DNA of 64,000 nt from Escherichia phage vB_EcoM_TH18: the sequence record ON075799. One strand, given 5' to 3'. Each line of letters begins with the position of its first letter. The first letter of the stretch is position 1. The translations under genes and the position numbers were made by a program. This document shows positions 31,775 through 43,486 of this stretch, piece by piece. The notes under the pieces are model-generated. The model ran no database searches and was not told where the DNA came from. It saw nothing but the letters and a program-made list of their open reading frames with translations.

Positions 31775-32560
31775 TTATATTCTTTTATACAAGGTAGGAG
31801 CTACAATTTTTGGAATAACAACAGGTTTGACTATTTCTTCTTTTTCAAGATAATTTATCCCAGAAGAAATGGCGTCGACCCAATCGTCTTTTCTTGTCGT
31901 TGTACTCCTTTCCCCATTGAACTTTTCAAGCTCTGTCATAAGGGCTTCATAAGTTTTAGGATCAAAACTATCACGAACTATTCTCACCATACCTGCTTGA
32001 GCAAGTTTTGCAAAAGGTGTAAATCTTGTTAATTTTGATTTATTGGTTGGTGTAGGATCTTTTTCTACTGTAAATCCTTCCGCTATTAGTTCACGAGAGC
32101 TTGTTAAAAATTCACTTATTCCTGCTTGTCCTGGGTCAACACTGAAAATTATGGTAACATCATCACCATCAAAATAAGCCTGTTTCTTAATGATAACATC
32201 ACGTTCCCCAGCTTTTTTACAGAATCTCCCCTGCGTTTGAGTTGAATATCTACCATCATCAAAAAATTCAGGACAATAATCACCAGACAAATAGTAAAAG
32301 CCATCATTGTCTTTACTTACCTTAACAGATGCTGTAAAGTCAGGATATCTGTTTCCAGATGTTCTTTCTGTACCTGCTTTATCATACGGACGAACAGATA
32401 CAACACCGAGAGGTAAGCAGGGAACCTCTTTTAAATAAGATCTCTGGAAATAGTTTGCCCCTTCAGGTCTTGCGTTCCAGTTTCCATGCAATAACTGGGC
32501 TTTTTCTACCTCTGGAAGACCTTCAAGGAATGCTAGATAATCTGGGTTATTCTCCAGCAT
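31775..32560 (-). CDS. terL: Terminase large subunit, exon 3 (nuclease domain; 5-prime boundary approximate)
   Basis: Open frame continues upstream of the listed Met; acidic motif KDDWVDA near C-terminus; preceded by group I intron core. Confidence 0.6.
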   Translation of the reverse strand: MLENNPDYLAFLEGLPEVEKAQLLHGNWNARPEGANYFQRSYLKEVPCLPLGVVSVRPYDKAGTERTSGNRYPDFTASVKVSKDNDGFYYLSGDYCPEFFDDGRYSTQTQGRFCKKAGERDVIIKKQAYFDGDDVTIIFSVDPGQAGISEFLTSSRELIAEGFTVEKDPTPTNKSKLTRFTPFAKLAQAGMVRIVRDSFDPKTYEALMTELEKFNGERSTTTRKDDWVDAISSGINYLEKEEIVKPVVIPKIVAPTLYKRI

Positions 32561-33575
32561 GGGAGGATTATCGAATCCTTGTATTCAAGGTTGGACGCAA
32601 CGCCAACCCCCGCACCACTACGTGCTGCTGCATGTCACCATGCAGAGTAGACTATATCACCACCCACACATAATGGGTGCTTCGCTTTTCGAACGCCATT
32701 AGCTTGCGATCTACTCCCTTGCGGGATAGTCGTTGAACTACATTACCATTCATAGTTGTTTGAGATATAGATGTAAGTTTTTCTATCTTTTATTCTTCTA
32801 ACAAGATTAAAACTAACACCCCATTTTTTAGATATCTTATTAATGCTTAGGATACCGTCTCTCAGATCTTCACATATCCCTATAACTTTGGATTCACTAA
32901 TTCTGTTGGAAGAAGGAACCATCCTGAAATTAAACTCTTTAGAAATGTCTGGGTAGACTCTCCCAGCTTTGATACTACTAACCACAGTCTGCCCAATACC
33001 AAACATCTCACTGATATCCTTTACTCTAGCACCCTGCTCAAGTAATCTGCATATCTCAAGGGCAGTGTTATCATCAAGAGGCCTGTAACTGTTTACATAA
33101 GACTTCTTAAGCCCTATTTCATGTGCGTGATGTGTGCTTTCCTTTGCAGTTGTCCACTCAAGATTCCACGCTGCGTTATTAAGTTTGTTTCCATCTAAAT
33201 GGTTCACTTGAGTTTTTGTATCAGGGCTATCATTCTCGACAAAAGCAAAAGCAATAACCCTATGGACAAGAACTTGAAACTTTTTACCATCCTCACACAA
33301 CGTTAACATTGCATAGCCAGTTTTCTTATGGACATTAGGATGTAAAAATTTGTGGGAATACAAACTATAAATTCTTCCATCATACGTCGCACAATAATGG
33401 GAATACCCTAAAAATCCTAAATTTTTCATCTCAAACATTCTCCCTACTACAGTTTCGGAAAAGTAATTATAGCTGCTGATTGCCCTTATACAAAGGGTTT
33501 CCCAGCAATTAACGAAGTTATTCGACATGCATTACTGCATGAAGCCACTATTCTTTTAATGGTTGCGGAAATGAA
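32561..33575 (-). mobile_element. Group I intron 2 carrying an HNH homing endonuclease ORF (boundaries approximate)
   Basis: Minus-strand reading shows P-like AAUUGCUGGGAAA, P5 hairpin, Q-like AAUCAGCAGC upstream of ORF, and R-like GUUCAACGACUAUC plus S-like GAUAUAGUCU downstream, giving P7 pairing GACUA/UAGUC. Confidence 0.65.
32743..33438 (-). CDS. HNH homing endonuclease (232 aa from MFEMKNLGF…)
   Basis: Typical N-terminus (KNLGFLGY…YDGRIYS) and HNH motif VNHLDGNKLNNAAWNLEW; SD AGGGAGA upstream of Met; lies inside intron between P/Q and R/S elements. Confidence 0.75.
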   Translation of the reverse strand: MFEMKNLGFLGYSHYCATYDGRIYSLYSHKFLHPNVHKKTGYAMLTLCEDGKKFQVLVHRVIAFAFVENDSPDTKTQVNHLDGNKLNNAAWNLEWTTAKESTHHAHEIGLKKSYVNSYRPLDDNTALEICRLLEQGARVKDISEMFGIGQTVVSSIKAGRVYPDISKEFNFRMVPSSNRISESKVIGICEDLRDGILSINKISKKWGVSFNLVRRIKDRKTYIYISNNYEW

Positions 33576-33914
33576 GGAAAATGAAAGCGGTTTAGGCTTT
33601 CTTTTCTCATCCTTGCCATCCCAATACTTTTCAATTAATTCTTGCTCTGAGTCACCCCAGATAAATTCTCCGTCACGTCTTATAAACCATCTAATCACCC
33701 CATCTCGTTCAGGTATAGGATATCCCTCATCGTCTAAATACCAAGAAATCAACTCCTTAATCTTATGATCTGGATCAGGGTTACAAGAGATAACCATCCT
33801 GCTCGGATATTTAGAGTTTGAACGTAGACGAGATATCAGATAATCTATCTGTGACCATGTGAATTGTGTTCCCTCATCAAAGCCGATGAAGGTATACTGC
33901 AACTTATTGTCCCC
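33572..33914 (-). CDS. terL: Terminase large subunit, exon 2 (Walker B region; boundaries approximate)
   Basis: Hydrophobic stretch ending in FIGFDEGT (Walker B-like), then ISCNP (coupling-motif-like); no ATG start; flanked by intron cores. Confidence 0.6.
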
Positions 33915-34141
33915 TCAGTTCGCTACACTGAGGCGGTGTGCCAAGACACCCGCCACATGTTTCCATGTGGAACAGACTATATCTTCCATCCTTGGCGTGC
34001 CGTTTGGATCACCAATCGCTTGTGATTCTACTCTCCTACACTCATCGGAGATAGTCGTTACACCCAGATTTTATATTTCCATATTCTGTGGCACGGTATT
34101 TTCCCATAGGGAGTTCCACCGTTATAGGCACGAAGGGCAAG
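33903..34141 (-). mobile_element. Group I intron 1, ORF-less (boundaries approximate)
   Basis: Minus-strand reading contains R-like GUGUAACGACUAUC and S-like AAGAUAUAGUCU (near-consensus), several hairpins, no ORF; separates Walker A and Walker B coding segments. Confidence 0.6.
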
Positions 34142-35512
34142 CTATTCACCCTGATGATCTAATTTGTTATTCTCATACTCCATGTGTCTCCACAACACCT
34201 TTGCCCCAGATGGGAAAATTGCTTCCAGAGCTTTCTCCCTGAACTTCGGCTTCCATTCCTTATCGAGTTGCAAATAAATACTTTTTGCTGTATCAAAAAG
34301 CCCACCTGCACCTGTCAATTGAGGTGTTGTCCTACGAAACATTATACATGCTGTCTGCGGGTCATCGACATAAGCAAGCGGCATCAATTGTAGGAGATAT
34401 GATTTTCCACTATTCCCAGTGACAACCACACAATCTTCTAGTCTGGTAACAAAGAAACCTGTTTGTGTTACAAAGCAGTATTTAAACCCATCCGTAGGTA
34501 TAAACTCTTTAAACTCAGCTTTTCTGTCTTTATTAGCCAGTGACCTTAATCCTTTTCCTCTAGCCATAATATTAACAGTATAACTGTCCTTTCCACTTCT
34601 TGTATCATGGTTTATGGTGGTATTATAACCAAGAGAAGATCCTACAAACTGAACAAAATCAGCGTTCATCTTATGGACAGTAAAATATCTACCTGTAAAG
34701 CTGTTATGTGTTTTACCGCCATATGGCTTACAAAAAGAACCATCCCAATGAAAAATCTCATCAAGTATTATCTCCAGTTGTTCATTTGAACACTGATAGT
34801 ATTTCTCTGTAAATTTTTTATCAGGATATTTAGGCCATACAATAACCTCGTACTGTTCCCCAGTGGTATATCTTTCACTGGGTTTTGATCCTCTATCTTC
34901 ATATCTTAATCCAAACTTTTTACAAAGTTCGATTAAGCGGTCATATTTACGCTTTTTAGCAAAGCGCATCTGTGTATAATTATCTTTCCCTTCTTTAACA
35001 ACTCTCCCATCAGCCATGACAGCAACCTGAAGCCGTAATTCCCCTTCTGTCATGTCTATCCCAGGACCATCATAGTTAAATGTAGTTATGAACTTACCTG
35101 TCCAACCTTTTTTAACAGAGTTGTTATGTCTTTCTGCCACTTCAGAAAAAGAAAGTGTTCTTGGCTGTGATTTATAGTCTGGTTTATAAATCACAGTATG
35201 TTCGTCAGATAGCTCTTGACAAATGCCATTACCTTCTATTCTTGTAAGTTTTTCGCAAGGGAGTTTAACAAACTCTAAAGGGGGGATAAATTTAGCCTCC
35301 CCAGTGGCTTTGTCATATTGCAGAATGTCCTGCCCTGACCATTCTGATATCTTAATCCAGCCAGATGGTGTCAACACCTCGTGGTCTTTAGACAAACACC
35401 CGGCGGCCCCACCAATTATTAGAATTTGGGCTTTACTCTCCAAAATCATTTTTTGCTTAGGACTGGCAGGTCCAAATACTTTACTCAAAAGACCTCCATA
35501 TTTTCTATTCAT
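34142..35512 (-). CDS. terL: Terminase large subunit, exon 1 (N-terminal ATPase segment including in-frame intein)
   Basis: N-extein ends IIGGAAG; C-extein resumes SGKSYLL, restoring Walker A GGAAGSGKS. Confidence 0.7.
   Translation of the reverse strand: MNRKYGGLLSKVFGPASPKQKMILESKAQILIIGGAAGCLSKDHEVLTPSGWIKISEWSGQDILQYDKATGEAKFIPPLEFVKLPCEKLTRIEGNGICQELSDEHTVIYKPDYKSQPRTLSFSEVAERHNNSVKKGWTGKFITTFNYDGPGIDMTEGELRLQVAVMADGRVVKEGKDNYTQMRFAKKRKYDRLIELCKKFGLRYEDRGSKPSERYTTGEQYEVIVWPKYPDKKFTEKYYQCSNEQLEIILDEIFHWDGSFCKPYGGKTHNSFTGRYFTVHKMNADFVQFVGSSLGYNTTINHDTRSGKDSYTVNIMARGKGLRSLANKDRKAEFKEFIPTDGFKYCFVTQTGFFVTRLEDCVVVTGNSGKSYLLQLMPLAYVDDPQTACIMFRRTTPQLTGAGGLFDTAKSIYLQLDKEWKPKFREKALEAIFPSGAKVLWRHMEYENNKLDHQGE
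34412..35398 (-). mobile_element. Intein (about 329 aa) inserted in the terminase Walker A P-loop
   Basis: Begins CLSKDHEVLTPSGWIKISEW (intein block A-like), ends …VVTGN followed by Ser; size suggests nested endonuclease, with weak LAGLIDADG-like segments (AVMADGRV, ILDEIFHWDGS). Confidence 0.65.
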
Positions 35513-35583
35513 ACCATAGAGGGTAGTTTACCACGAATAACGATAAAAATAAAGCCCTTATCATTAAATAAGGGCATTGTCAA

Positions 35584-37814: not shown

Positions 37815-37893
37815 TGGTTGCGAGTATTGGAATCGAACCTGCAATCTTCAGGGTATGAACCTAACATGGTAAATCCATTTCCACCAATCTGCA
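37815..37893 (-). tRNA. tRNA-like element, degenerate (possible anticodon CAU); likely pseudo-tRNA
   Basis: T-loop-like GGUUCGAUUCC and D-arm found, but acceptor and T stems pair poorly in hand fold. Confidence 0.25.
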
Positions 37894-37899
37894 ATAATT

Positions 37900-37975
37900 T
37901 GGTGTGACGGACAGGATTCGAACCTGTGACCACCTAGTCTTCAGCAAGGCACTCTACCAACTGAGTTACCGTCAC
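37900..37975 (-). tRNA. tRNA-Phe (anticodon GAA)
   Basis: Hand-folded cloverleaf: acceptor GUGACGG/CCGUCAC, T-arm ACAGG-UUCGAAU-CCUGU, anticodon loop CUGAAGA, CCA encoded. Confidence 0.75.
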
Positions 37976-37980
37976 ATAAT

Positions 37981-38057
37981 TGGTGGGCGATGAGGGACTC
38001 GAACCCCCAAAATTCAGGTTCTAAGCCTGACATGTATACCAATTCCATCAATCGCCC
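37981..38057 (-). tRNA. tRNA with anticodon UAG (Leu by anticodon) but class I architecture
   Basis: Acceptor GGGCGAU/AUCGCCC, anticodon arm UCAGG-CUUAGAA-CCUGA, 5-nt variable loop, A73, CCA encoded. Confidence 0.6.
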
Positions 38058-38305
38058 ATCTATATTAACAGTTATGGTTTTCCACGATACACAGAAATAG
38101 TTTTCCCATTAGCATTGATAACATAAGCGGTCTGATCCTCAGACAAAAACACTTTTTGATCAATGCCGGAAATAGCTATAGACTTTTGATGAGCACAATA
38201 CCCAACAATTTTCCCACAAAAAATTTGTTCATCATTTGGAGAGACGACTTTAACTGTTAACATGGTATCCTCTGTACATTTCTGCTTTGATATGTTTATG
38301 TTTGT

Positions 38306-38383
38306 TGGTCTGTCCGGTTGGATTTGAACCAACGACCTGGTCATCCCAAGTGACCCGCGCTACCCAAGCTGCGCTACGGACAG
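38306..38383 (-). tRNA. tRNA-Pro (anticodon UGG)
   Basis: Acceptor CUGUCCG/CGGACAG, anticodon loop CUUGGGA, T-arm GUUGG-UUCAAAU-CCAAC. Confidence 0.75.
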
Positions 38384-38467
38384 AGAAATGTAGATTTTAA
38401 TTGTCCCAGAATCTACTAACTGGTATCGCTGGCTAGGTGATATCTGTGACTTGATTAAGTCAAGAAT

Positions 38468-38559
38468 TGGCGGTTCCTGAAGGATTCGAACCTTCGGTGG
38501 GGAGATTCATTCCCAACGGCTTAACAGGCCGTCACCATCGACCACTCGGTCAAAGAACC
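38468..38559 (-). tRNA. Class II (long variable arm) tRNA with anticodon GUU (Asn by anticodon)
   Basis: 92 nt; acceptor GGUUCUU/AGGAACC, D-arm with CCGAGUGG, anticodon arm ACGGC-CUGUUAA-GCCGU, 20-nt variable arm, T-arm GAAGG-UUCGAAU-CCUUC, G73, CCA. Confidence 0.6.
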
Positions 38560-38568
38560 TGAATATTT

Positions 38569-38645
38569 TGGTGGATCTGGTTGGGGTCGAACCAACAATC
38601 TCTCGATTAAAAGTCGAGTGACTTAAACCATTTGGCTACAAATCC
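38569..38645 (-). tRNA. tRNA-Lys (anticodon UUU)
   Basis: Acceptor GGAUUUG/CAGAUCC, anticodon arm CUCGA-CUUUUAA-UCGAG. Confidence 0.75.
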
Positions 38646-38878
38646 GTTAAATTATCTTTAAAATAGCTAATTACTCGCACATAATTAGCTATACGCAACA
38701 ACTCTCCAAGGAGAGCACACTAATGATCGATTACGATTATATGACTAAATTTAGACCATCATAAGTGTTTGGCTTACGCCAGTAAAGAGCGGACTGCTCT
38801 GGGGTATCGGTAAGATGGTTGCAGCCATCTACCGAAAAATCACACCAAGCAACTAAACAAGCTACATTAAAGATAACT

Positions 38879-38967
38879 TGGAGGAGGCTGACAGAATCGA
38901 ACTGTCACCATATCTCTACAGCGGGACTGGGTTCAAACCAGCTTGTGCACCATGCACCCCAGCCTCC
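38879..38967 (-). tRNA. tRNA-Ser (anticodon UGA), class II
   Basis: Acceptor GGAGGCU/AGCCUCC, anticodon arm GCUGG-UUUGAAC-CCAGU, long variable arm, T-arm GACAG-UUCGAUU-CUGUC. Confidence 0.7.
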
Positions 38968-39038
38968 AAAGATAGCCTCTGCCGAGGATATACACCCAAC
39001 AAAGGAGGCGCTCAGGTCAGAAGAAATCTGAGCCTTAA

Positions 39039-39132
39039 TGGAGGAAGATGCCAGACTTGAACTGGCACACCCATTTCTGGGTTACTATCTCCTTAGCAGG
39101 GAGATCCCTTACCAAATTAGGGTTAATCTTCC
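39039..39132 (-). tRNA. tRNA-Ser (anticodon GCU), class II
   Basis: Acceptor GGAAGAU/AUCUUCC, anticodon arm UCUCC-CUGCUAA-GGAGA, long variable arm, T-arm GCCAG-UUCAAGU-CUGGC. Confidence 0.7.
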
Positions 39133-39153
39133 AATACCTTAGTAATTAAAAAC

Positions 39154-39243
39154 TGGTGGAGAAGGAGAGAATCGAACTCTCAAGCCGTTTTACCAGTCAG
39201 CACATTTCCAATGTGCTTTCGTCGCCAATCGATTTGCTTCTCC
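39154..39243 (-). tRNA. tRNA-Ser (anticodon GGA), class II
   Basis: Acceptor GGAGAAG/CUUCUCC, anticodon arm GCACA-UUGGAAA-UGUGC, T-arm GAGAG-UUCGAUU-CUCUC; D-arm irregular. Confidence 0.65.
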
Positions 39244-39252
39244 GTTTTAACT

Positions 39253-39328
39253 TGGCAGGGGATGGTTGATTCGAACAACCGATCACGGGGTCAAAGCCCG
39301 TTGCATTAGGCCACTATGCTAATCCCCT
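39253..39328 (-). tRNA. tRNA-Gln (anticodon UUG)
   Basis: Acceptor AGGGGAU/AUCCCCU, D-stem GCAU/AUGC, anticodon arm ACGGG-CUUUGAC-CCCGU. Confidence 0.75.
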
Positions 39329-39331
39329 TTT

Positions 39332-39409
39332 GCACGAGAGTGAGGAATAGAACCTCTTAGTCACTGGTTTTGGAGGCCAGCCTTCACCCAGTGAAGTTAC
39401 GCTACTCTC
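39332..39409 (-). tRNA. tRNA-like remnant (probable pseudo-tRNA)
   Basis: Acceptor-like GAGAGU/ACUCUC and T-arm-like GAGG-UUCUAUU-CCUC, but no canonical anticodon arm. Confidence 0.2.
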
Positions 39410-39417
39410 ATTAAAAA

Positions 39418-39975
39418 CTATTTTCGAAAAGGACTTATGAAAAATGCCAACATCACTCTCTCTCTTGAAAAAGCTCTGTCTTCAGGAACCACACTCTTCA
39501 GTTTCCAACCGACATAAATTCGCCAGTAAAATTGTTTTCCAAACAATCTAAAAGACGGGACAAACGCGAATACACCCCACGCATTGTCATTCCACATCAA
39601 CAAATAGCCTTGTTGGTTATCCTCCACATCAGAGCTTACATGGAGGTTTCCTTTCCACTTTGTCACAGATGTGATTTCACGTCCAAGTACGTGATAGGAG
39701 AAATTGTAGGCTTTATTTCTCCACAACCAAGCAACTCGTTGTAGGTAAACACCAAAACTTCCTATTTTACGGACTTCTTCCCATCTCTCTATGTGTCCTC
39801 TATCACCGTCTATAGGATTATCATATGTCTCCATCCACCTGAAAATATAAGGCAGATGCCCTGTCTTCTCATTATAGAACGGAACAACAAAAGGAGCCAG
39901 AATAACACAGAGAACCGACATAACTGGGTCAAGAGGTGCTAACAGGATCCACGATAAATATTTTAAGTATCTCAT
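39418..39975 (-). CDS. Hypothetical membrane-associated protein (185 aa) embedded in tRNA cluster
   Basis: Hydrophobic N-terminal helix; Trp-rich. Confidence 0.35.
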   Translation of the reverse strand: MRYLKYLSWILLAPLDPVMSVLCVILAPFVVPFYNEKTGHLPYIFRWMETYDNPIDGDRGHIERWEEVRKIGSFGVYLQRVAWLWRNKAYNFSYHVLGREITSVTKWKGNLHVSSDVEDNQQGYLLMWNDNAWGVFAFVPSFRLFGKQFYWRIYVGWKLKSVVPEDRAFSRERVMLAFFISPFRK

Positions 39976-40327
39976 GCAGGATCAAGCCTAGATATAATGT
40001 ACTGGTTTAAATCTGAATATGGGAAGATACTTTCAAAGATAACCTGTTTAAATCTGAAGCCGCACAAACCGAAAAGTACCTTCTGACACTCACCAAAAGA
40101 GCAATCTTTACCAACTTTTATCACAACCGTATCGGCAATCTGCACACTTTCTATCTCTTTAGATTCATGATGCCGTACTATGATTACTTTAGAAACCATC
40201 ATACTCGTCCATATTAAAGCCTTCTACTAAAGATAGTAGATGTCTAGGGTTGGACCGCAAACGCAACCCCATGGAATTTGTTACGGTCTTCAGTTGACCC
40301 AAGCGGATTTCATTGACATCTTTTAAC

Positions 40328-40402
40328 TGGAGCATCCAGAGGGTATCGAACCCTCGACTTCAGCTTGGAAGGCTGTAGTTTTCCCAATTAAACTATGGAT
40401 GC
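40328..40402 (-). tRNA. tRNA-Gly (anticodon UCC)
   Basis: Acceptor GCAUCCA/UGGAUGC, anticodon loop CUUCCAA, T-arm GAGGG-UUCGAUA-CCCUC. Confidence 0.7.
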
Positions 40403-40407
40403 ATATT

Positions 40408-40483
40408 TGGTGGGAGTGGTAGGCTCTGCCCCTACGTCCTCTCGATTATCGGTCGAGCGATCTACTAACTGATCTACACTCCC
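40408..40483 (-). tRNA. tRNA-shaped gene, anticodon GAU (Ile by anticodon), with non-canonical D-, anticodon- and T-loops
   Basis: All four stems perfectly paired, but T-loop is GGCAGAG (no UUC), D-loop AGUUAGUA lacks GG, anticodon loop CCGAUAA has C33. Confidence 0.55.
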
Positions 40484-40551
40484 AAACTGTACTGGCCCAA
40501 CAACCACGATTGGAGGGTATCGTCACACATCAAAGCCAGTACAGTTTTAGT

Positions 40552-40641
40552 TGGTGTGCCGTGATAGAGTCGAACTACCCGAGTCCCTTTCGAGACAGGA
40601 GATTTACAGTCTCCCCCGCTACCCCTACGGTCTAACGACAC
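40552..40641 (-). tRNA. tRNA-Tyr (anticodon GUA), class II
   Basis: Acceptor GUGUCGU/ACGGCAC, anticodon arm GGAGA-CUGUAAA-UCUCC, long variable arm, A73. Confidence 0.7.
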
Positions 40642-40642
40642 A

Positions 40643-40990
40643 TTAACCTTGTTTGAATTGAACAATATCCGTCGAGAACGGTTTAGCTGCCTTAATAGGT
40701 GCTTTTTCTGAGTTATCTTTTTCGAGTAACTCTTCGTTTTCCTCATCAAAGTAATCAGAAAGCATCTGCTCACCTTTCTCAATAACATAACGAGCTATAT
40801 TTTCTCTGATATTGTCTTTTGTATTCACATTCTTCATCAAATCCCTAAGAACCTGATGAGCTTCAGGAATCATTGCAATCAGATTCGTTTTTAAATCTAG
40901 GATATTTTTCTCTAACTGAATTGCATTAGATTCCTCTTTCAGAGGACGACCTTTTCCTCTTCTACGTTTTGTAAGCTGCTTAGTAGCCAT
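40643..40990 (-). CDS. Hypothetical basic/acidic protein (115 aa from MATKQL…)
   Basis: ORF trimmed to Met downstream of a consensus sigma70 promoter; longer listed ORF would overlap tRNA-Cys. Confidence 0.4.
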   Translation of the reverse strand: MATKQLTKRRRGKGRPLKEESNAIQLEKNILDLKTNLIAMIPEAHQVLRDLMKNVNTKDNIRENIARYVIEKGEQMLSDYFDEENEELLEKDNSEKAPIKAAKPFSTDIVQFKQG

Positions 40991-41009
40991 TTTAAAACCC
41001 CACTTAATG

Positions 41010-41038
41010 ATATTATCAAATAAAAACATATCTGTCAA
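41010..41038 (-). promoter_or_regulatory. Consensus sigma70-like promoter on minus strand (TTGACA, 17-nt spacer, TAATAT)
   Basis: Minus-strand reading TTGACAgatatgtttttatttgaTAATAT, about 20 nt upstream of ATG at 40990. Confidence 0.55.
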
Positions 41039-41075
41039 GTGGTATTTTAACATATTTACCAAGAAATTGAAAGTT

Positions 41076-41152
41076 TGGAGCACGGTGTCGGACTTGAACC
41101 GACATATATCTGTTTTGCAGACAGATCCGTAACCAAATTCCAGCAACCGTGC
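41076..41152 (-). tRNA. tRNA-Cys (anticodon GCA)
   Basis: Acceptor GCACGGU/ACCGUGC, anticodon arm UCUGU-CUGCAAA-ACAGA, T-arm GUCGG-UUCAAGU-CCGAC. Confidence 0.7.
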
Positions 41153-41228
41153 AATAAGTACCCCAGGTAGAGAACCTATAGAGTGGGTCTTACGAGCCGC
41201 GCTGACGATTCTCAAGTTGGGGTTAATC

Positions 41229-41305
41229 TGGTCGAGGAGACAGGATTCGAACCTGTGACCTACGGCTTAGAAGGCCGCTGCTCTATCCAACTGAGCTACA
41301 CCCCG
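41229..41305 (-). tRNA. tRNA-Arg (anticodon UCU)
   Basis: D-arm GCUC-AGUUGGAUA-GAGC, anticodon arm GCGGC-CUUCUAA-GCCGU, T-arm ACAGG-UUCGAAU-CCUGU; acceptor has one U-U mismatch. Confidence 0.7.
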
Positions 41306-41505
41306 AAAATAAGAATGCTTTATAGTGTATGGTTACTCAACCTCACTCCAACTTCCACAGTTGGTGCTCTACGAGCATGACTACGTTTGAAATCAACGTT
41401 GCGCACCGATAGCTTTCTCACGCATTGTATGCCTCATTCCCAACAAATGCTGATCAGACATTTATATCGAATAATATAAGCTAATACACTATAAAACAAA
41501 CTTGT

Positions 41506-41602
41506 GGCTGGGTGATGGAATCGAACCACCTATGTATTCAACGGCTTCCCCGTCTATTTTCAGGATTATAAATCCTCGCCCTTGCCAAAGGGCTTACCCA
41601 GC
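41506..41602 (-). tRNA. Atypical 97-nt tRNA-like gene (possible anticodon UAU) with about 30-nt extra segment
   Basis: Canonical acceptor GCUGGGU/ACCCAGC, D-arm GCCC-UUUGGCAA-GGGC, T-arm GGUGG-UUCGAUU-CCAUC; anticodon region is a 4-bp stem with loop UUUAUAA followed by 30 extra nt; CCA not encoded. Confidence 0.35.
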
Positions 41603-41604
41603 AT

Positions 41605-41679
41605 TGGTGCTCGCAGCAGGTTTCGAACCTGCAACCCCCTGCTTACAAGGCAGGTGCTCTACCGTTGAGCTATACGAGC
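41605..41679 (-). tRNA. tRNA-Thr (anticodon UGU)
   Basis: Acceptor GCUCGUA/UGCGAGC, anticodon arm CCUGC-CUUGUAA-GCAGG, T-arm GCAGG-UUCGAAA-CCUGC. Confidence 0.75.
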
Positions 41680-42044
41680 AATAAGACATTGCTTCCGATT
41701 AACAGCCTTGAGGCTTTACAGACCATATCTTGTGAGCCATAACCTGTGCCAAGGATTTCAGATGATAAACGAAATTTTATCTTTCAAGAGTCAACTTTCA
41801 AGTTTCATCTTTTACATTTAACCATTGACCTTTATTGTATGAACTTTTACTTAGTGGAAACAACAAGGCATCTTCGTGTGCCTCGCTGCATCTATGTCCT
41901 GTATTATCCTCATACATATACGATACATGGTGGGGGATATTTAACCTCCAACCCCCAGGAGGCAAGATGATGTAAACTTCGTTAATCAAAAGCAATGTTT
42001 TAAATTTCAAAACAAAGGAACGATAATGATATTATCAGAGCCTT

Positions 42045-42692
42045 TTAGAGAGAGTGCTCAATCTCAATTTCTGTCTTAGCGTTTGACTCAGACAACGCAA
42101 AATCAACGTTAGACAAGAAATCTTCAATCTCTTCTTCAAGAGAACGAATCTTAGAAGCCAGTTCAAGAGGATCCACAACCGATGGTGTGTTCATCATTCG
42201 AATAGGAGCTTCCACAGTCTTAATCTGCTCTGCATCTGGCGCTTTATCACGTTGGATATATGGCGCTCTTGCATTTTCAAGTTTATCTTCCAGAGATTTT
42301 TCTTCTTTTGCCAGAAGAAGCTGTGCAGAAGCACGCTGTGCACAAAGTTTGTTTAACAACTCTTGTTTAAAGCAAATCGTCCGTTTGCGTTCGATTGCCT
42401 CAGCAACTGTCATAGACACATTACCAATTTTGACAATTGTCTCAGCATTAGACTTAACAATTTTTGCTTTCAGTTCATCACGCACTGCCAAGAGGTCTTG
42501 CAGACTTTGATAGTCGTTGATCGCAGATTTCTTAAAATCATCAACAGAGCCGATATAACCCGGAATCTTACAATTATTCTCAGTTCCTTTTGCAATCTTA
42601 ATACAATCAAGATTGTAGATACGCTTATTGATCTTATCTTCAATTTTAGAGATAGAAGCAAGTGCACGAGTTACGGAAATCTTAGTAGACAT
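42045..42692 (-). CDS. Hypothetical protein (215 aa)
   Basis: ORF with coiled-coil-like charged regions. Confidence 0.4.
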   Translation of the reverse strand: MSTKISVTRALASISKIEDKINKRIYNLDCIKIAKGTENNCKIPGYIGSVDDFKKSAINDYQSLQDLLAVRDELKAKIVKSNAETIVKIGNVSMTVAEAIERKRTICFKQELLNKLCAQRASAQLLLAKEEKSLEDKLENARAPYIQRDKAPDAEQIKTVEAPIRMMNTPSVVDPLELASKIRSLEEEIEDFLSNVDFALSESNAKTEIEIEHSL

Positions 42693-43033
42693 GCGATCTC
42701 TCCTATGTAAATCAGCTTTGATAAAGTAACTATCCAGAAAAACAAAAACTATGTCAAGAAAAATTTTAATCTTTTACAGCATCTTTTATAGAATCACAAA
42801 GATCTTGAACAACATCAGATGTCGGTGACAAAATCATCTCGTCGGCTGCTGCTATAGCATCTGATGCTAAATCAACAAACGGAGTTGTTACCGCAGAAGT
42901 CACTTCAACAGCCGTTATTGTTACTTCGCTTGCAATCTTAAGCAAAGATCCTATCATAATCTCAACCCTCCTGAATATCCGTGATTCCCTTTATTTAACG
43001 ACGCTGGCTCACGGTGGCACTCTCGTCAATAAA

Positions 43034-43357
43034 CTATTTTTTAGTTTTCTTACCGTTTTCTACAGAAATGCTTGTTTTCTGTTTCGCTTCTCGTTCGCGC
43101 TTTGTTTTCCCAGTGCGAATACGATATGAAGCAGAAATAACTTCACCACCAATGACACGAGACACAGATTCGTAATACATTTCAGTATTACCGTCTTCAT
43201 CTTTGCGTTTTTTCAGAACTGCTACAGTTTGCGTTTTACCACCAAGGCGCACATCGTGCGGTGCAGAATGTGTCTGCGTGGATTTTGATCCAAACTGAAA
43301 AGGTTGCTTTATCGCCTCGATAGCTGACACCTTTTTAGCAGACTGTTTCTTAGCCAT
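43034..43357 (-). CDS. Hypothetical basic protein (about 107 aa from MAKKQSAKK…)
   Basis: Lys/Arg-rich small protein. Confidence 0.4.
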   Translation of the reverse strand: MAKKQSAKKVSAIEAIKQPFQFGSKSTQTHSAPHDVRLGGKTQTVAVLKKRKDEDGNTEMYYESVSRVIGGEVISASYRIRTGKTKREREAKQKTSISVENGKKTKK

Positions 43358-43409
43358 TAAGTTTTCTCCTCCGAAAACAATAAACATAGTTTATTTCGTG
43401 TGCCACATT

Positions 43410-43486
43410 TGGTGGCCCCTGCTGGACTTGAACCAGCGACCAAGCGATTATGAGTCACCTGCTCTATCCAACTGAGCTAAGGGGCC
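43410..43486 (-). tRNA. tRNA-Met (anticodon CAU; elongator-type or lysidine-modified Ile2 not distinguishable)
   Basis: Acceptor GGCCCCU/AGGGGCC with G1-C72, anticodon loop CUCAUAA, T-arm GCUGG-UUCAAGU-CCAGC. Confidence 0.75.

Follow-up and report, generated by a model that had tools for sequence, protein, structure and literature searches.

In an Avunavirus-type E. coli phage, the 987-nucleotide segment that interrupts the Walker A motif of the gene for the large terminase subunit (TerL) is very probably a bona fide and active intein carrying a nested LAGLIDADG homing endonuclease with two motifs. Inteins of this kind are already well known, and those in terminase P-loops in general are well documented; what is new here is an unannotated member that domain libraries miss and whose catalytic make-up is unusual.

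Boundaries of the insert

The host gene is an ORF of 456 aa on the minus strand (35512..34142) of the window, that is, the whole stretch of 64,000 nucleotides analyzed. In its translation, ...AQILIIGGAAG(38) is followed by C39LSKDHEVLTPSGWIKISEW... at the upstream junction, and ...CVVVTGN367 by S368GKSYLLQ at the downstream junction. An earlier note on this DNA had placed an insert of about 329 residues at 34412-35398, within the TerL Walker A motif; both claims proved exact, with the insert spanning ORF residues C39-N367 (window 35398..34412), or 329 codons, and splitting the motif as GGAAG/SGKS. As the note had also stated, deleting the 329 codons in silico re-forms the Walker A sequence GGAAGSGKS, and this sequence is contiguous in intein-less homologues. 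Empty alleles reading IIGGAAGSGKS without interruption are found in Cronobacter phage Csp-D17, Klebsiella phage P8734 and rV5, with identities of up to 84% (Csp-D17 TerL, the closest).

The Pfam Terminase_6N match picks up again exactly at S368, which serves as Ser+1 (codon AGT, 34411..34409) and supplies the GKS half of Walker A. On TerL freed of the insert and of two introns, Terminase_6N matches at full length (profile 1-213 of 215, 87.5 bits, E = 1.3e-24), and the spliced 507-aa protein also matches Terminase_6C. The reading frame is open across all 329 codons, and a tblastn search of the intein against the 64-kb window found no second copy. Judged on these sequence features and on the 2330 related protein clusters described below, the pattern of the insert is far beyond chance. 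At the start of the N-extein the residues YGGLLSK are conserved in Csp-D17; an alternative TerL start, TTG at 35488 with GGAGG upstream, is the one chosen by GenBank.

Table 1. Features of the TerL gene in window coordinates
Feature	Position	Strand	Basis or remarks
N-extein of TerL, M1-G38	35399..35512	-	β-strand and first half of Walker A
Intein, 329 aa (C1...N329, intein numbering)	34412..35398	-	Junctions, empty alleles, relatives, fold
N-terminal splicing (HINT) subdomain, intein residues 1-109	35072..35398	-	AceL NrdHF profile match; DSSP strands
Block A, CLSKDHEVLTPSG	35398..35360	-	Within the N-terminal HINT subdomain
Block B, GICQELSDEHTVIY	35227..35186	-	Ser B:7, His B:10, Val B:12
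LAGLIDADG homing-endonuclease domain, residues ~110-290	34529..35071	-	Two motifs; fold
LAGLIDADG motif 1, GELRLQVAVMADGRV, residues 119-133	35044..35000	-	Asp130
LAGLIDADG motif 2, EQLEIILDEIFHWDGSF, residues 206-222	34783..34733	-	Asp219
C-terminal splicing subdomain, residues 291-329	34412..34528	-	Blocks F and G
Block F, GFKYCFVTQTGFFVTR	34489..34442	-	Cys308 = F:4 (in KYCF); Arg319 invariant
Block G, CVVVTGN	34432..34412	-	Thr327 = G:5, Gly328 = G:6, Asn329 = G:7
C-extein, remainder of TerL exon 1 (S+1 GKSYLLQ...KLDHQG)	34148..34411	-	Terminase_6N resumes at 368
Group I intron 1, 245 nt, no ORF	33903..34147	-	Between codons HQG and LQY
TerL exon 2 (LQYTFIGFDEG... Walker B ...SFISAT + AU)	33559..33902	-	Coding sequence, Pfam match
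Group I intron 2, 982 nt	32577..33558	-	Contains HNH homing-endonuclease ORF 33528..32743
TerL exon 3 (nuclease domain, Terminase_6C), with stop codon	31775..32576	-	Pfam match

Two group I introns, which the earlier note did not mention, nor the minus strand, also interrupt the gene. Both combine a match to the group I core with a 5' U.G pair, a G as the last nucleotide and a precise gap against intron-less homologues; they were detected in E-value mode only, Rfam at gathering thresholds yielding just tRNAs. The scores with RF00028, all under the gathering score of 50, were 34.1 bits (E = 3.9e-6) for intron 1 and 31.6 (E = 2e-5) and 21.4 bits for intron 2. Intron 1 ends in G and has its U.G pair in P1 at the splice site, where Av-05, Csp-D17 and P8734 are contiguous (HQGLQYTF); intron-less homologues are likewise contiguous at the site of intron 2 (SATIFDNPPML). 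The ORF within intron 2 matches Pfam HNH_3 (E = 2e-6). An HNH intron occupies the same site in rV5 (ORF64ABC/ORF65), which is annotated with a three-piece joined CDS and an HNH gene in the arrangement found here, and the terminase HNH intron of Pectobacterium phage CB7 splices by RT-PCR (PMC7344957). These Vequintavirinae introns act at the RNA level, distinct from the intein, and no TerL intein is reported for rV5 or CB7.

Three deposited phage genomes (OK136180 and two others) contain the identical sequence; all come from marmot samples and are 'partial genome' scaffolds, so that the viability of a phage with precisely this allele is an assumption. The records of this phage and of Av-05 show at least three separate 'terminase large subunit' fragments with no intein annotated, and our literature searches found no TerL intein in Av-05 or Avunavirus. 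The actual product would be a single 507-aa TerL, assembled by removing two introns from the RNA and one intein from the protein.

A family of P-loop inteins missed by curated profiles

The structure model of the insert predicts a HINT fold, with DSSP strands across residues 7-104, and a central domain with the α-β-β-α-β-β-α fold of LAGLIDADG endonucleases that matches I-DmoI and I-Tsp061I. The LAGLIDADG helices are LRLQVAVMADG (ending in Asp130) and LEIILDEIFHWDG (ending in Asp219), and helices at 118-130 and 205-218 are seen in the model. The motifs and the modeled fold bear out the nested homing endonuclease that the earlier note had proposed. Its description of the LAGLIDADG-like segments as weak was right about their presence and too cautious about their strength; 161 of the 164 relatives retain the acidic residue at each of the two sites.

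An intein HMM scan, the check suggested in the earlier note, matched no intein model: Pfam (Intein_splicing and Hint models) and NCBIfam intein families gave nothing at E ≤ 10 for either the insert or the whole ORF. The sole Pfam or NCBIfam match of the intein was a weak one to LAGLIDADG_3 (PF14528; 13.9 bits, E = 0.068, under the cut-off of 22.5). Among 55 relatives, 11 matched PF14528 at E ≤ 0.001 (best 1.3e-10) and just two matched PF14890. The failure of the curated intein HMMs reflects the divergence of the family, not a missing fold. Single-sequence phmmer against the PDB returned non-significant matches only, so that a family profile was required; with it we found the AceL NrdHF intein (6zgq, E = 3.2e-8), which is nearest among solved inteins in both profile and fold comparisons. 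A profile built on full proteins (A2) retrieved mainly DnaB and T7 gp4 helicases, through their exteins. The C-terminal 50 residues matched coronavirus proteases in the PDB, which we discarded as chance matches; blocks F and G are therefore not alignable to 6zgq by sequence, and their residues are numbered by analogy with PMC2807308 and PMC7891396. Routine pipelines will count too few inteins in phage ATPases, because the intein models of Pfam and NCBIfam overlook this family of over 2000 clusters.

In a library of 1.84 billion proteins, 2330 protein clusters are related to the insert, which begins at offsets of 31-668 in host proteins with DnaB_C, Toprim, AAA_30, Terminase_6N, SNF2 and PIF1 domains. 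By tblastn, full-length relatives (residues 1-329, 25-43% identity) lie in primase/helicase, RtcB, RecD-like, PhoH-like and RNR genes of unrelated phages, one of them annotated 'intein-containing topoisomerase primase', and the inteins of a mycobacteriophage primase and PhoH-like protein match at 26% identity. The flanks of full-length relatives in DnaB, primase-helicase, RecD/PhoH, SNF2 and TerL almost always read G/[SCT]GK[ST], and this one shared P-loop position points to extein switching by way of the nucleotide-binding motif. The presence of relatives in unrelated proteins, the empty alleles, the restored Terminase_6N match and the modeled HINT fold together support the earlier note's reading of the insert as an intein.

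The catalytic positions are strongly conserved across the 164 relatives. Cys1, Ser64-x-x-His67, Asn329 and Ser+1 are all present in the TerL intein and each is kept in at least 162 relatives: Cys1 in 162, His B:10 in 163, Asn G:7 in 163, and Ser, Cys or Thr at +1 in 163 (Ser or Thr in 105). Cys F:4 equals Cys1 at 162, and G:5 is Thr in 147 and Ser in 15, making 162. At B:12, where the TerL intein has Val69 next to a Thr at B:11, the relatives have Val, Ile, Phe, Met or Leu and none has Trp. The downstream junction reads TGN/S, and the earlier note was correct that the penultimate His is absent; 156 of the 164 relatives also have Gly at G:6, so that a penultimate Gly is the family norm rather than a lesion. 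Neither TGN as a family trait nor the block F Cys had been remarked on in the earlier note. Two residues usual in class 1 inteins, Asp F:4 and His G:6, are absent.

Splicing chemistry, class and rival explanations

We propose that both group I introns leave the mRNA first, and that the precursor is then translated and the intein excises itself, which would join G38 to S368 and restore the ATP-binding loop. The ligated protein would yield the tryptic junction peptide AQILIIGGAAGSGK. TerL is essential, and it would be non-functional until the intein is excised. The most likely chemistry would be an N-S acyl shift at Cys1, transfer to Ser+1 and cyclization of Asn329, and we infer that Cys1 is the initiating nucleophile, as in class 1. 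The putative active site is atypical (Ser B:7, His B:10, Cys F:4, Thr G:5, Gly G:6), from which we propose that Asn cyclization proceeds without a penultimate His, as in AceL NrdHF and a mycobacteriophage RDF intein.

Both comparisons bear on this point. AceL NrdHF (Hoffmann et al. 2020, PMC7891396, the source of the residue identities compared here) shares the TGN end (T144-G145-N146), and its G145H mutation abolishes activity. AceL NrdHF occurs naturally in two pieces in an RNR beta (NrdHF) gene, and its GIY-YIG nuclease is free-standing; the TerL intein, in one piece and starting with Cys1, lies in the TerL P-loop and has its LAGLIDADG endonuclease in frame. At B:11, AceL NrdHF has an Arg that aids Asn cyclization and compensates, in contrast to Thr in the TerL intein. 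The Bethlehem gp51 RDF intein, one of the phage class 1 inteins that do without a penultimate His, splices efficiently and is slowed by changing its penultimate Gly to His (PMC5050341); compared by description, it resembles the TerL intein in Cys1, penultimate Gly, LAGLIDADG-type nuclease and size (317 aa), and differs in host protein and insertion site. The family is a candidate source of fast, His-independent splicing tools.

The mechanistic class is left in doubt by the equal conservation of the block F Cys and Cys1. Cys308 at F:4 and Thr327 at G:5 fit the definition of class 3 (PMC2807308), whereas Val69 in place of Trp at B:12 and the presence of Cys1 as a nucleophile do not. We consider it possible, though doubtful, that a class 3-type route operates, in which Cys308 would attack the N-terminal scissile bond or accept the acyl group from Cys1, forming a block F branched thioester that is passed to Ser+1; the family would then be related to the AceL NrdHF class 3 lineage, or resemble its ancestral state, while still retaining Cys1. 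The matching conservation of Cys F:4 and Cys1, the Thr or Ser at G:5 and the frequent Ser or Thr at +1 are consistent with such a route, as is one relative (P0124) that has Gly1 yet retains Cys F:4 and TGN. Canonical WCT class 3 inteins (MP-Be DnaB, Msm/Mch DnaB-1; PMC2807308, PMC7664689) share Cys F:4 and Thr G:5, prefer Ser or Thr at +1, occupy helicase and terminase P-loop sites and have a phage link; the host genes and P-loop site fit the class 3 bias in PMC2807308, where a few WCT inteins start with Ser or Cys. AceL NrdHF is a proven class 3 intein with Ala1, despite having Met and not Trp at B:12 (PMC7891396). However, the near-invariance of Cys1 argues that it is needed, and Trp B:12 is missing throughout the relatives. 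Class 1 inteins with Cys F:4 also exist and are polyphyletic, according to passages of PMC3196547 and PMC4031507 that cite Tori and Perler 2011, and Thr G:5 is found in the class 1 gp41-1 intein too (PMC7664689).

We would advance only tentatively the broader idea of a very large phage clade (more than 2000 clusters) specialized on Walker A and defined by two active-site Cys (Cys1 and Cys F:4), Thr G:5 and TGN. In its members the N-extein would be carried by a branched thioester at Cys F:4, which would either follow the Cys1 thioester or replace it; the clade would be a living intermediate between classes 1 and 3 from which AceL NrdHF derived by loss of Cys1, independently of the WCT lineage. 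Conserved Cys1 and Cys F:4, the TGN end and kinship with AceL make the family a tractable system for the origin of class 3 splicing.

Two further explanations would remove splicing from the picture. The missing penultimate His, the silence of curated HMMs and the partial-genome records could suggest a decayed, non-splicing intein, with TerL a pseudogene in the scaffolds or packaging provided by a helper phage. We find this very unlikely: every position conserved across the 164 relatives is intact in a frame open for 329 codons, Gly G:6 is normal for the family, and the same catalytic residues are found in a 98% identical copy (P0001) and in three copies at 76-77% identity (P0002-P0004). A truly decayed relative (P0066) presents a contrasting picture, with Cys1, His B:10, Cys F:4 and Asn G:7 all missing. 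Alternatively, the insert might be an accessory domain particular to this lineage and permanently retained in TerL, with ATP bound by VTGNSGKS, given that its end and the C-extein resemble a β-strand followed by a P-loop and that RRNGxIFxTGNSGxGKS of the family profile aligns with T7 gp4 ARGGEVIMVTSGSGMGKST. This is extremely improbable, as the module is absent from homologues at 84% identity and recurs in unrelated proteins, the splice-junction residues are conserved and the modeled fold is HINT plus LAGLIDADG. Moreover, the first Gly/Ala of GxxxxGK[ST] is missing from VTGNSGKS, and the true N-terminal half, GGAAG, lies 329 residues upstream. The refutation envisaged in the earlier note, an ordinary terminase domain with Walker A located elsewhere, fails against close TerL homologues in which GGAAGSGKS is contiguous without the insert. 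We therefore rejected both readings: that the insert is a native part of the terminase supplying a Walker A of its own, and that it is a decayed intein.

For an active intein, homing would follow from cleavage of intein-less P-loop alleles during co-infection, upon which the element would be copied in; in empty TerL alleles, the stretch that encodes the P-loop is the candidate target. We propose that the family has spread through many ATPase genes because the endonuclease targets this conserved sequence. The endonuclease-bearing inteins PI-SceI, TliVMA, PI-PfuI and PI-PkoII are only 11-15% identical to the TerL intein, with matched chains of 366-537 residues versus 329 in our model. The mycobacteriophage TerL1-a and TerL1-b inteins (Kelley et al. 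2016, PMC5050341), compared by description, also bear endonucleases within the TerL Walker A motif and follow the same logic, TerL being inactive before splicing. The TerL1-b intein (BAKA gp6) and three other TerL-family inteins splice, and TerL1-b and TerL1-c cut intein-less alleles (PMC5050341). Their hosts are Terminase_1 proteins, as opposed to Terminase_6 here, and TerL1-a is inserted between Lys and Thr (GK/T), whereas the TerL intein lies two residues earlier (G/SGKS).

Interruptions of the terminase gene

The first open reading frame (ORF) of the large terminase (TerL) gene encodes 456 residues beginning MNRKYGGLLSKVFGPASPKQKMILESKAQILIIGGAAG; its sequence, which holds the insert (C39-N367), continues CLSKDHEVLTPSGWIKISEW... 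and, 329 residues on, reaches the junction ...LEDCVVVTGN/SGKSYLLQLMPL..., giving Thr-Gly-Asn/Ser as the C-terminal splice junction. The limits of C39-N367 coincide exactly with the coordinates in the earlier note, which had placed an intein in the Walker A P-loop. That placement holds, as taking the insert out yields GGAAGSGKS, alleles that lack it are uninterrupted, and the full Terminase_6N match is restored. Residues upstream of TTG 35488, the GenBank start (4 nt past GGAGG), are kept in Cronobacter phage Csp-D17, which favors ATG 35512 as the putative start even though it has no clear Shine-Dalgarno sequence.

Features of the TerL region and their coordinates
Feature	Coordinates	Strand
tRNA cluster	37815..43486	minus
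Terminator-like hairpin region	35574..35486	minus
TerL first ORF	35512..34142	minus
Intein insert, 987 nt	35398..34412	minus
Intein center (endonuclease core)	35212..34493	minus
Last intein strand and C-extein	34432..34400	minus
Ser+1 codon	34411..34409	minus
Group I core, first	34203..33953	
Intron 1, 245 nt	34147..33903	minus
ORF with second Terminase_6N match	33902..33486	
Additional group I piece	33568..33361	
Intron 2, 982 nt	33558..32577	minus
HNH_3 endonuclease ORF (Pfam), in intron 2	33528..32743	minus
Group I core, second	32819..32628	
ORF with Terminase_6C	32560..31775	

Escherichia phages 18-1-2, 19-1-2 and 24-2-1 (Vequintavirinae, Avunavirus), whose records are partial genomes from marmot samples, match this region at 100% identity, and rV5-like phages match its downstream part at ~75%. 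In GenBank the region is entered as three separate 'terminase large subunit' CDSs along with an HNH gene, and the intein is unannotated. We found TerL to be broken three times, by the intein and by two group I introns. In Pfam, Terminase_6N starts in the first ORF only at residue 368 and is seen again in the next ORF, and the HNH_3 ORF separates the latter from Terminase_6C. A permissive Rfam scan located two group I cores (34.1 bits, E=3.9e-6, RF00028; and 31.6 bits) and an additional piece, all below the gathering score; intron boundaries were set by sequence inspection and intron-less homologues.

Intron 1, which has no ORF, lies between codons HQG and LQY. Its P1 pairs AGGGU of the 5' exon end (...CAGGGU) with GCCCU, placing a U.G pair at the splice site, and its 3' end (...AAUAAG) has a terminal G. 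It is absent from Av-05, rV5, Csp-D17 and Klebsiella phage P8734; TerL of rV5 and Av-05 breaks 12 codons downstream of its site, after FDEG. Intron 2 lies between SATI and FDNPP (P1 CCAU/GUGG; 3' end ...ACAAGG), the same site as in the ORF64/ORF65 arrangement of rV5, where the terminase is entered as a join of three pieces plus an HNH gene. In the related phage CB7, RT-PCR has demonstrated splicing of an HNH intron that interrupts the terminase gene (PMC7344957).

Once the exons were joined and the insert deleted, the resulting 507-aa protein aligned with positions 1-213 of the 215-position Terminase_6N profile (87.5 bits, E=1.3e-24), with a match to Terminase_6C as well. The same protein is uninterrupted in Csp-D17 (84% identity across the first 280 residues) and P8734, which read IIGGAAGSGKSYLLQ, HQGLQYTF and SATIFDNPPML, and GGAAG/SGKS of rV5 is uninterrupted at the DNA level. 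Ser+1 is encoded by AGT in the intein-bearing phage and by TCA or TCT in the three intein-less alleles, and flanking synonymous sites are also unlike; these differences could be co-conversion tracts or target-site differences. Around the gene, a hairpin (GCCCTTA-N8-TAAGGGC) with a T run follows the upstream gene, and 16 tRNA genes (Met x2, Phe, Leu, Pro, Asn, Lys, Ser x3, Gln, Gly, Tyr, Cys, Arg, Thr) are clustered upstream of the packaging genes.

A mobile intein family

The insert is a mobile element and not a terminase domain; its full-length relatives inside unrelated genes make a resident domain very unlikely. In a tblastn search of the 329-aa insert against 50,697 phage records, matches over residues 1-329 at 25-43% identity fell within primase/helicase genes of Pseudomonas KIL phages, RtcB of Bacillus and Corynebacterium phages, RecD-like and PhoH-like proteins of Vibrio, Acinetobacter and Mycobacterium phages, RNR subunits, and a mycobacteriophage gene annotated 'intein-containing topoisomerase primase'. 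Scanning 1.84 billion cluster representatives in full with HMMER gave 2330 clusters at E<=1e-3, of which 327 reached E<=1e-30; nearly all of the best 150 of the 2330 align over 1-329, with offsets from 31 to 668 in proteins 336-1319 aa long. Host domains among 55 sampled relatives were DnaB_C (15), Toprim_2 (11), AAA_30/AAA_19 (7/6), Terminase_6N (6) and SNF2 (4), with PIF1, ResIII and KaiC-like domains as well. Nucleotide-binding motifs have been proposed as extein-switching routes.

An AlphaFold2 model from an 18-sequence alignment (mean pLDDT 90, pTM 0.89) matched the TliVMA intein (E=5e-14), PI-SceI (3e-12) and PI-PfuI (1e-10) by Foldseek against the PDB, and its central domain matched I-Tsp061I and I-DmoI (~1e-5 to 1e-6). 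[quoted passage not shown] With this fold, mobile relatives in unrelated genes and retained catalytic residues, the intein reading is supported. The intein HMM scan that had been proposed as a check returned no intein model from Pfam, where the only match was LAGLIDADG_3 (E=0.068), and zero matches from NCBIfam; PHROGs matches were confined to intein-containing families named for their exteins.

Inteins in TerL ATPase domains, Walker A included, are well documented, in line with the earlier note, and TerL is the commonest intein host in actinobacteriophages (PMC5050341; bioRxiv 10.1101/2025.01.02.630785). The insertion point here, G/SGKS in a Terminase_6-type TerL, differs from the sites of mycobacteriophage TerL1-a and TerL1-b. 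We found no description of an Avunavirus intein in literature or annotation, and therefore regard this as a new, unannotated one of an already known sort. Its interest is at the family level, moderate and specialist, and lies in four traits: a dual-Cys active site, the terminal TGN, the relationship to AceL NrdHF and the failure of Pfam and NCBIfam to detect the family. TerL genes of phAPEC8-like phages (Phapecoctavirus-type) match only intein residues 1-71, at 42% identity, and so may hold a different intein, or a chimeric one, at this TerL site.

Catalytic residues and the probable route of splicing

In an alignment of 164 full-length relatives, each extended by six residues on either side, the window intein carries all consensus residues of the family.

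Residues at intein block positions among the 164 relatives
Position	Window intein	Relatives
1	Cys	Cys 162
B:7	Ser64	Ser 130, Cys 17, Thr 16
B:10	His67	His 163
B:12	Val69	Val 107, Ile 21, Phe 15, Met 8, Leu 7, Trp 0
F:3	Tyr307	Tyr 163
F:4	Cys308	Cys 162
Between F and G	Arg319	Arg 163
G:5	Thr327	Thr 147, Ser 15
G:6	Gly328	Gly 156, His 4
G:7	Asn329	Asn 163
+1	Ser	Ser 85, Cys 58, Thr 20

The flanks (-1 Gly in 144, +2 Gly in 149, +3 Lys in 146, +4 Ser/Thr in 139) place nearly all members at one Walker A position, G/[SCT]GK[ST]. Cys1, His B:10, Asn329, Ser+1 and a HINT fold give the window intein the requirements for protein splicing, and since 329 residues in the P-loop would bar TerL from binding ATP, we infer that splicing is necessary in a viable phage.

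The penultimate His is absent, as the earlier note had observed, and Gly in its place is the family norm rather than a defect. AceL NrdHF ends T144-G145-N146 and also lacks His at F:13; there, G145H kills activity and Arg B:11 aids Asn cyclization (PMC7891396). A mycobacteriophage RDF intein with penultimate Gly splices efficiently, and more slowly when Gly is changed to His (PMC5050341). B:11 is Thr in the window intein in contrast to the Arg of AceL NrdHF, and the invariant Arg319 is a candidate helper of Asn cyclization.

Splicing probably starts at Cys1. The defining residues of class 3 inteins are Trp B:12, Cys F:4 and Thr G:5; these inteins mostly lack an N-terminal nucleophile, usually have Ser or Thr at +1, and are concentrated in P-loops of helicases and phage terminases (PMC2807308). 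The family shares this Cys, this Thr and the P-loop, helicase and terminase bias, and its nearest characterized relative, AceL NrdHF, is a proven class 3 intein, so that splicing through a Cys308 branched thioester is a possible but distinctly less likely route. However, Cys1 is nearly invariant in the family, Trp B:12 occurs in none of the 164 relatives, Thr G:5 is also present in the class 1 gp41-1 intein (PMC7664689), and some class 1 inteins have Cys at F:4 (PMC3196547). Set against the class 3 likenesses, the Cys1 and B:12 evidence and these class 1 precedents therefore lead us to prefer initiation at Cys1.

P0066, a free-standing relative of 336 aa, shows genuine decay: Cys1, His B:10, Cys F:4 and Asn G:7 are all gone together, and this protein could be a nuclease that was domesticated or has decayed. 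Another relative (P0124) has Gly1, yet retains Cys F:4 and TGN, and P0130, alone in having Ser at F:4, carries His at G:6. The last intein strand and C-extein (consensus RRNGxIFxTGN/SGxGKS) align to the beta-1 strand and P-loop of T7 gp4 (ARGGEVIMVTSGSGMGKST); block G thus mimics the strand usually found ahead of Walker A, which may be coincidence or tied to the site preference of the family.

Endonuclease module and the Av-05 mosaic

The nuclease domain looks intact, and Asp130 and Asp219, the two acidic residues of the LAGLIDADG motifs, are conserved in 161 of the 164 relatives apiece. Compared with Av-05 (locus L003), the exteins and the first ~200 nt and last ~90 nt of the intein are 97-100% identical in nucleotide sequence, and the intein center is diverged or deleted, which makes a sharp mosaic. 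The Av-05 intein is ~80 aa shorter (first-exon product of 376 aa versus 456 aa), its first LAGLIDADG half is gone and its second motif lacks the Asp (WDG to QGG). This truncated architecture recurs in another TerL lineage (relative P0016 versus P0002). The mosaic is consistent with an endonuclease module that was exchanged or has decayed inside a resident intein, as a homing cycle would predict. In the Av-05 record KM190144 (loci L003 and L006), the TerL exon-2 segment (residues 126-241) is antisense to exons 1 and 3 and adjoins the ends of the record, and this opposite-strand placement is probably an assembly artifact or an inversion.
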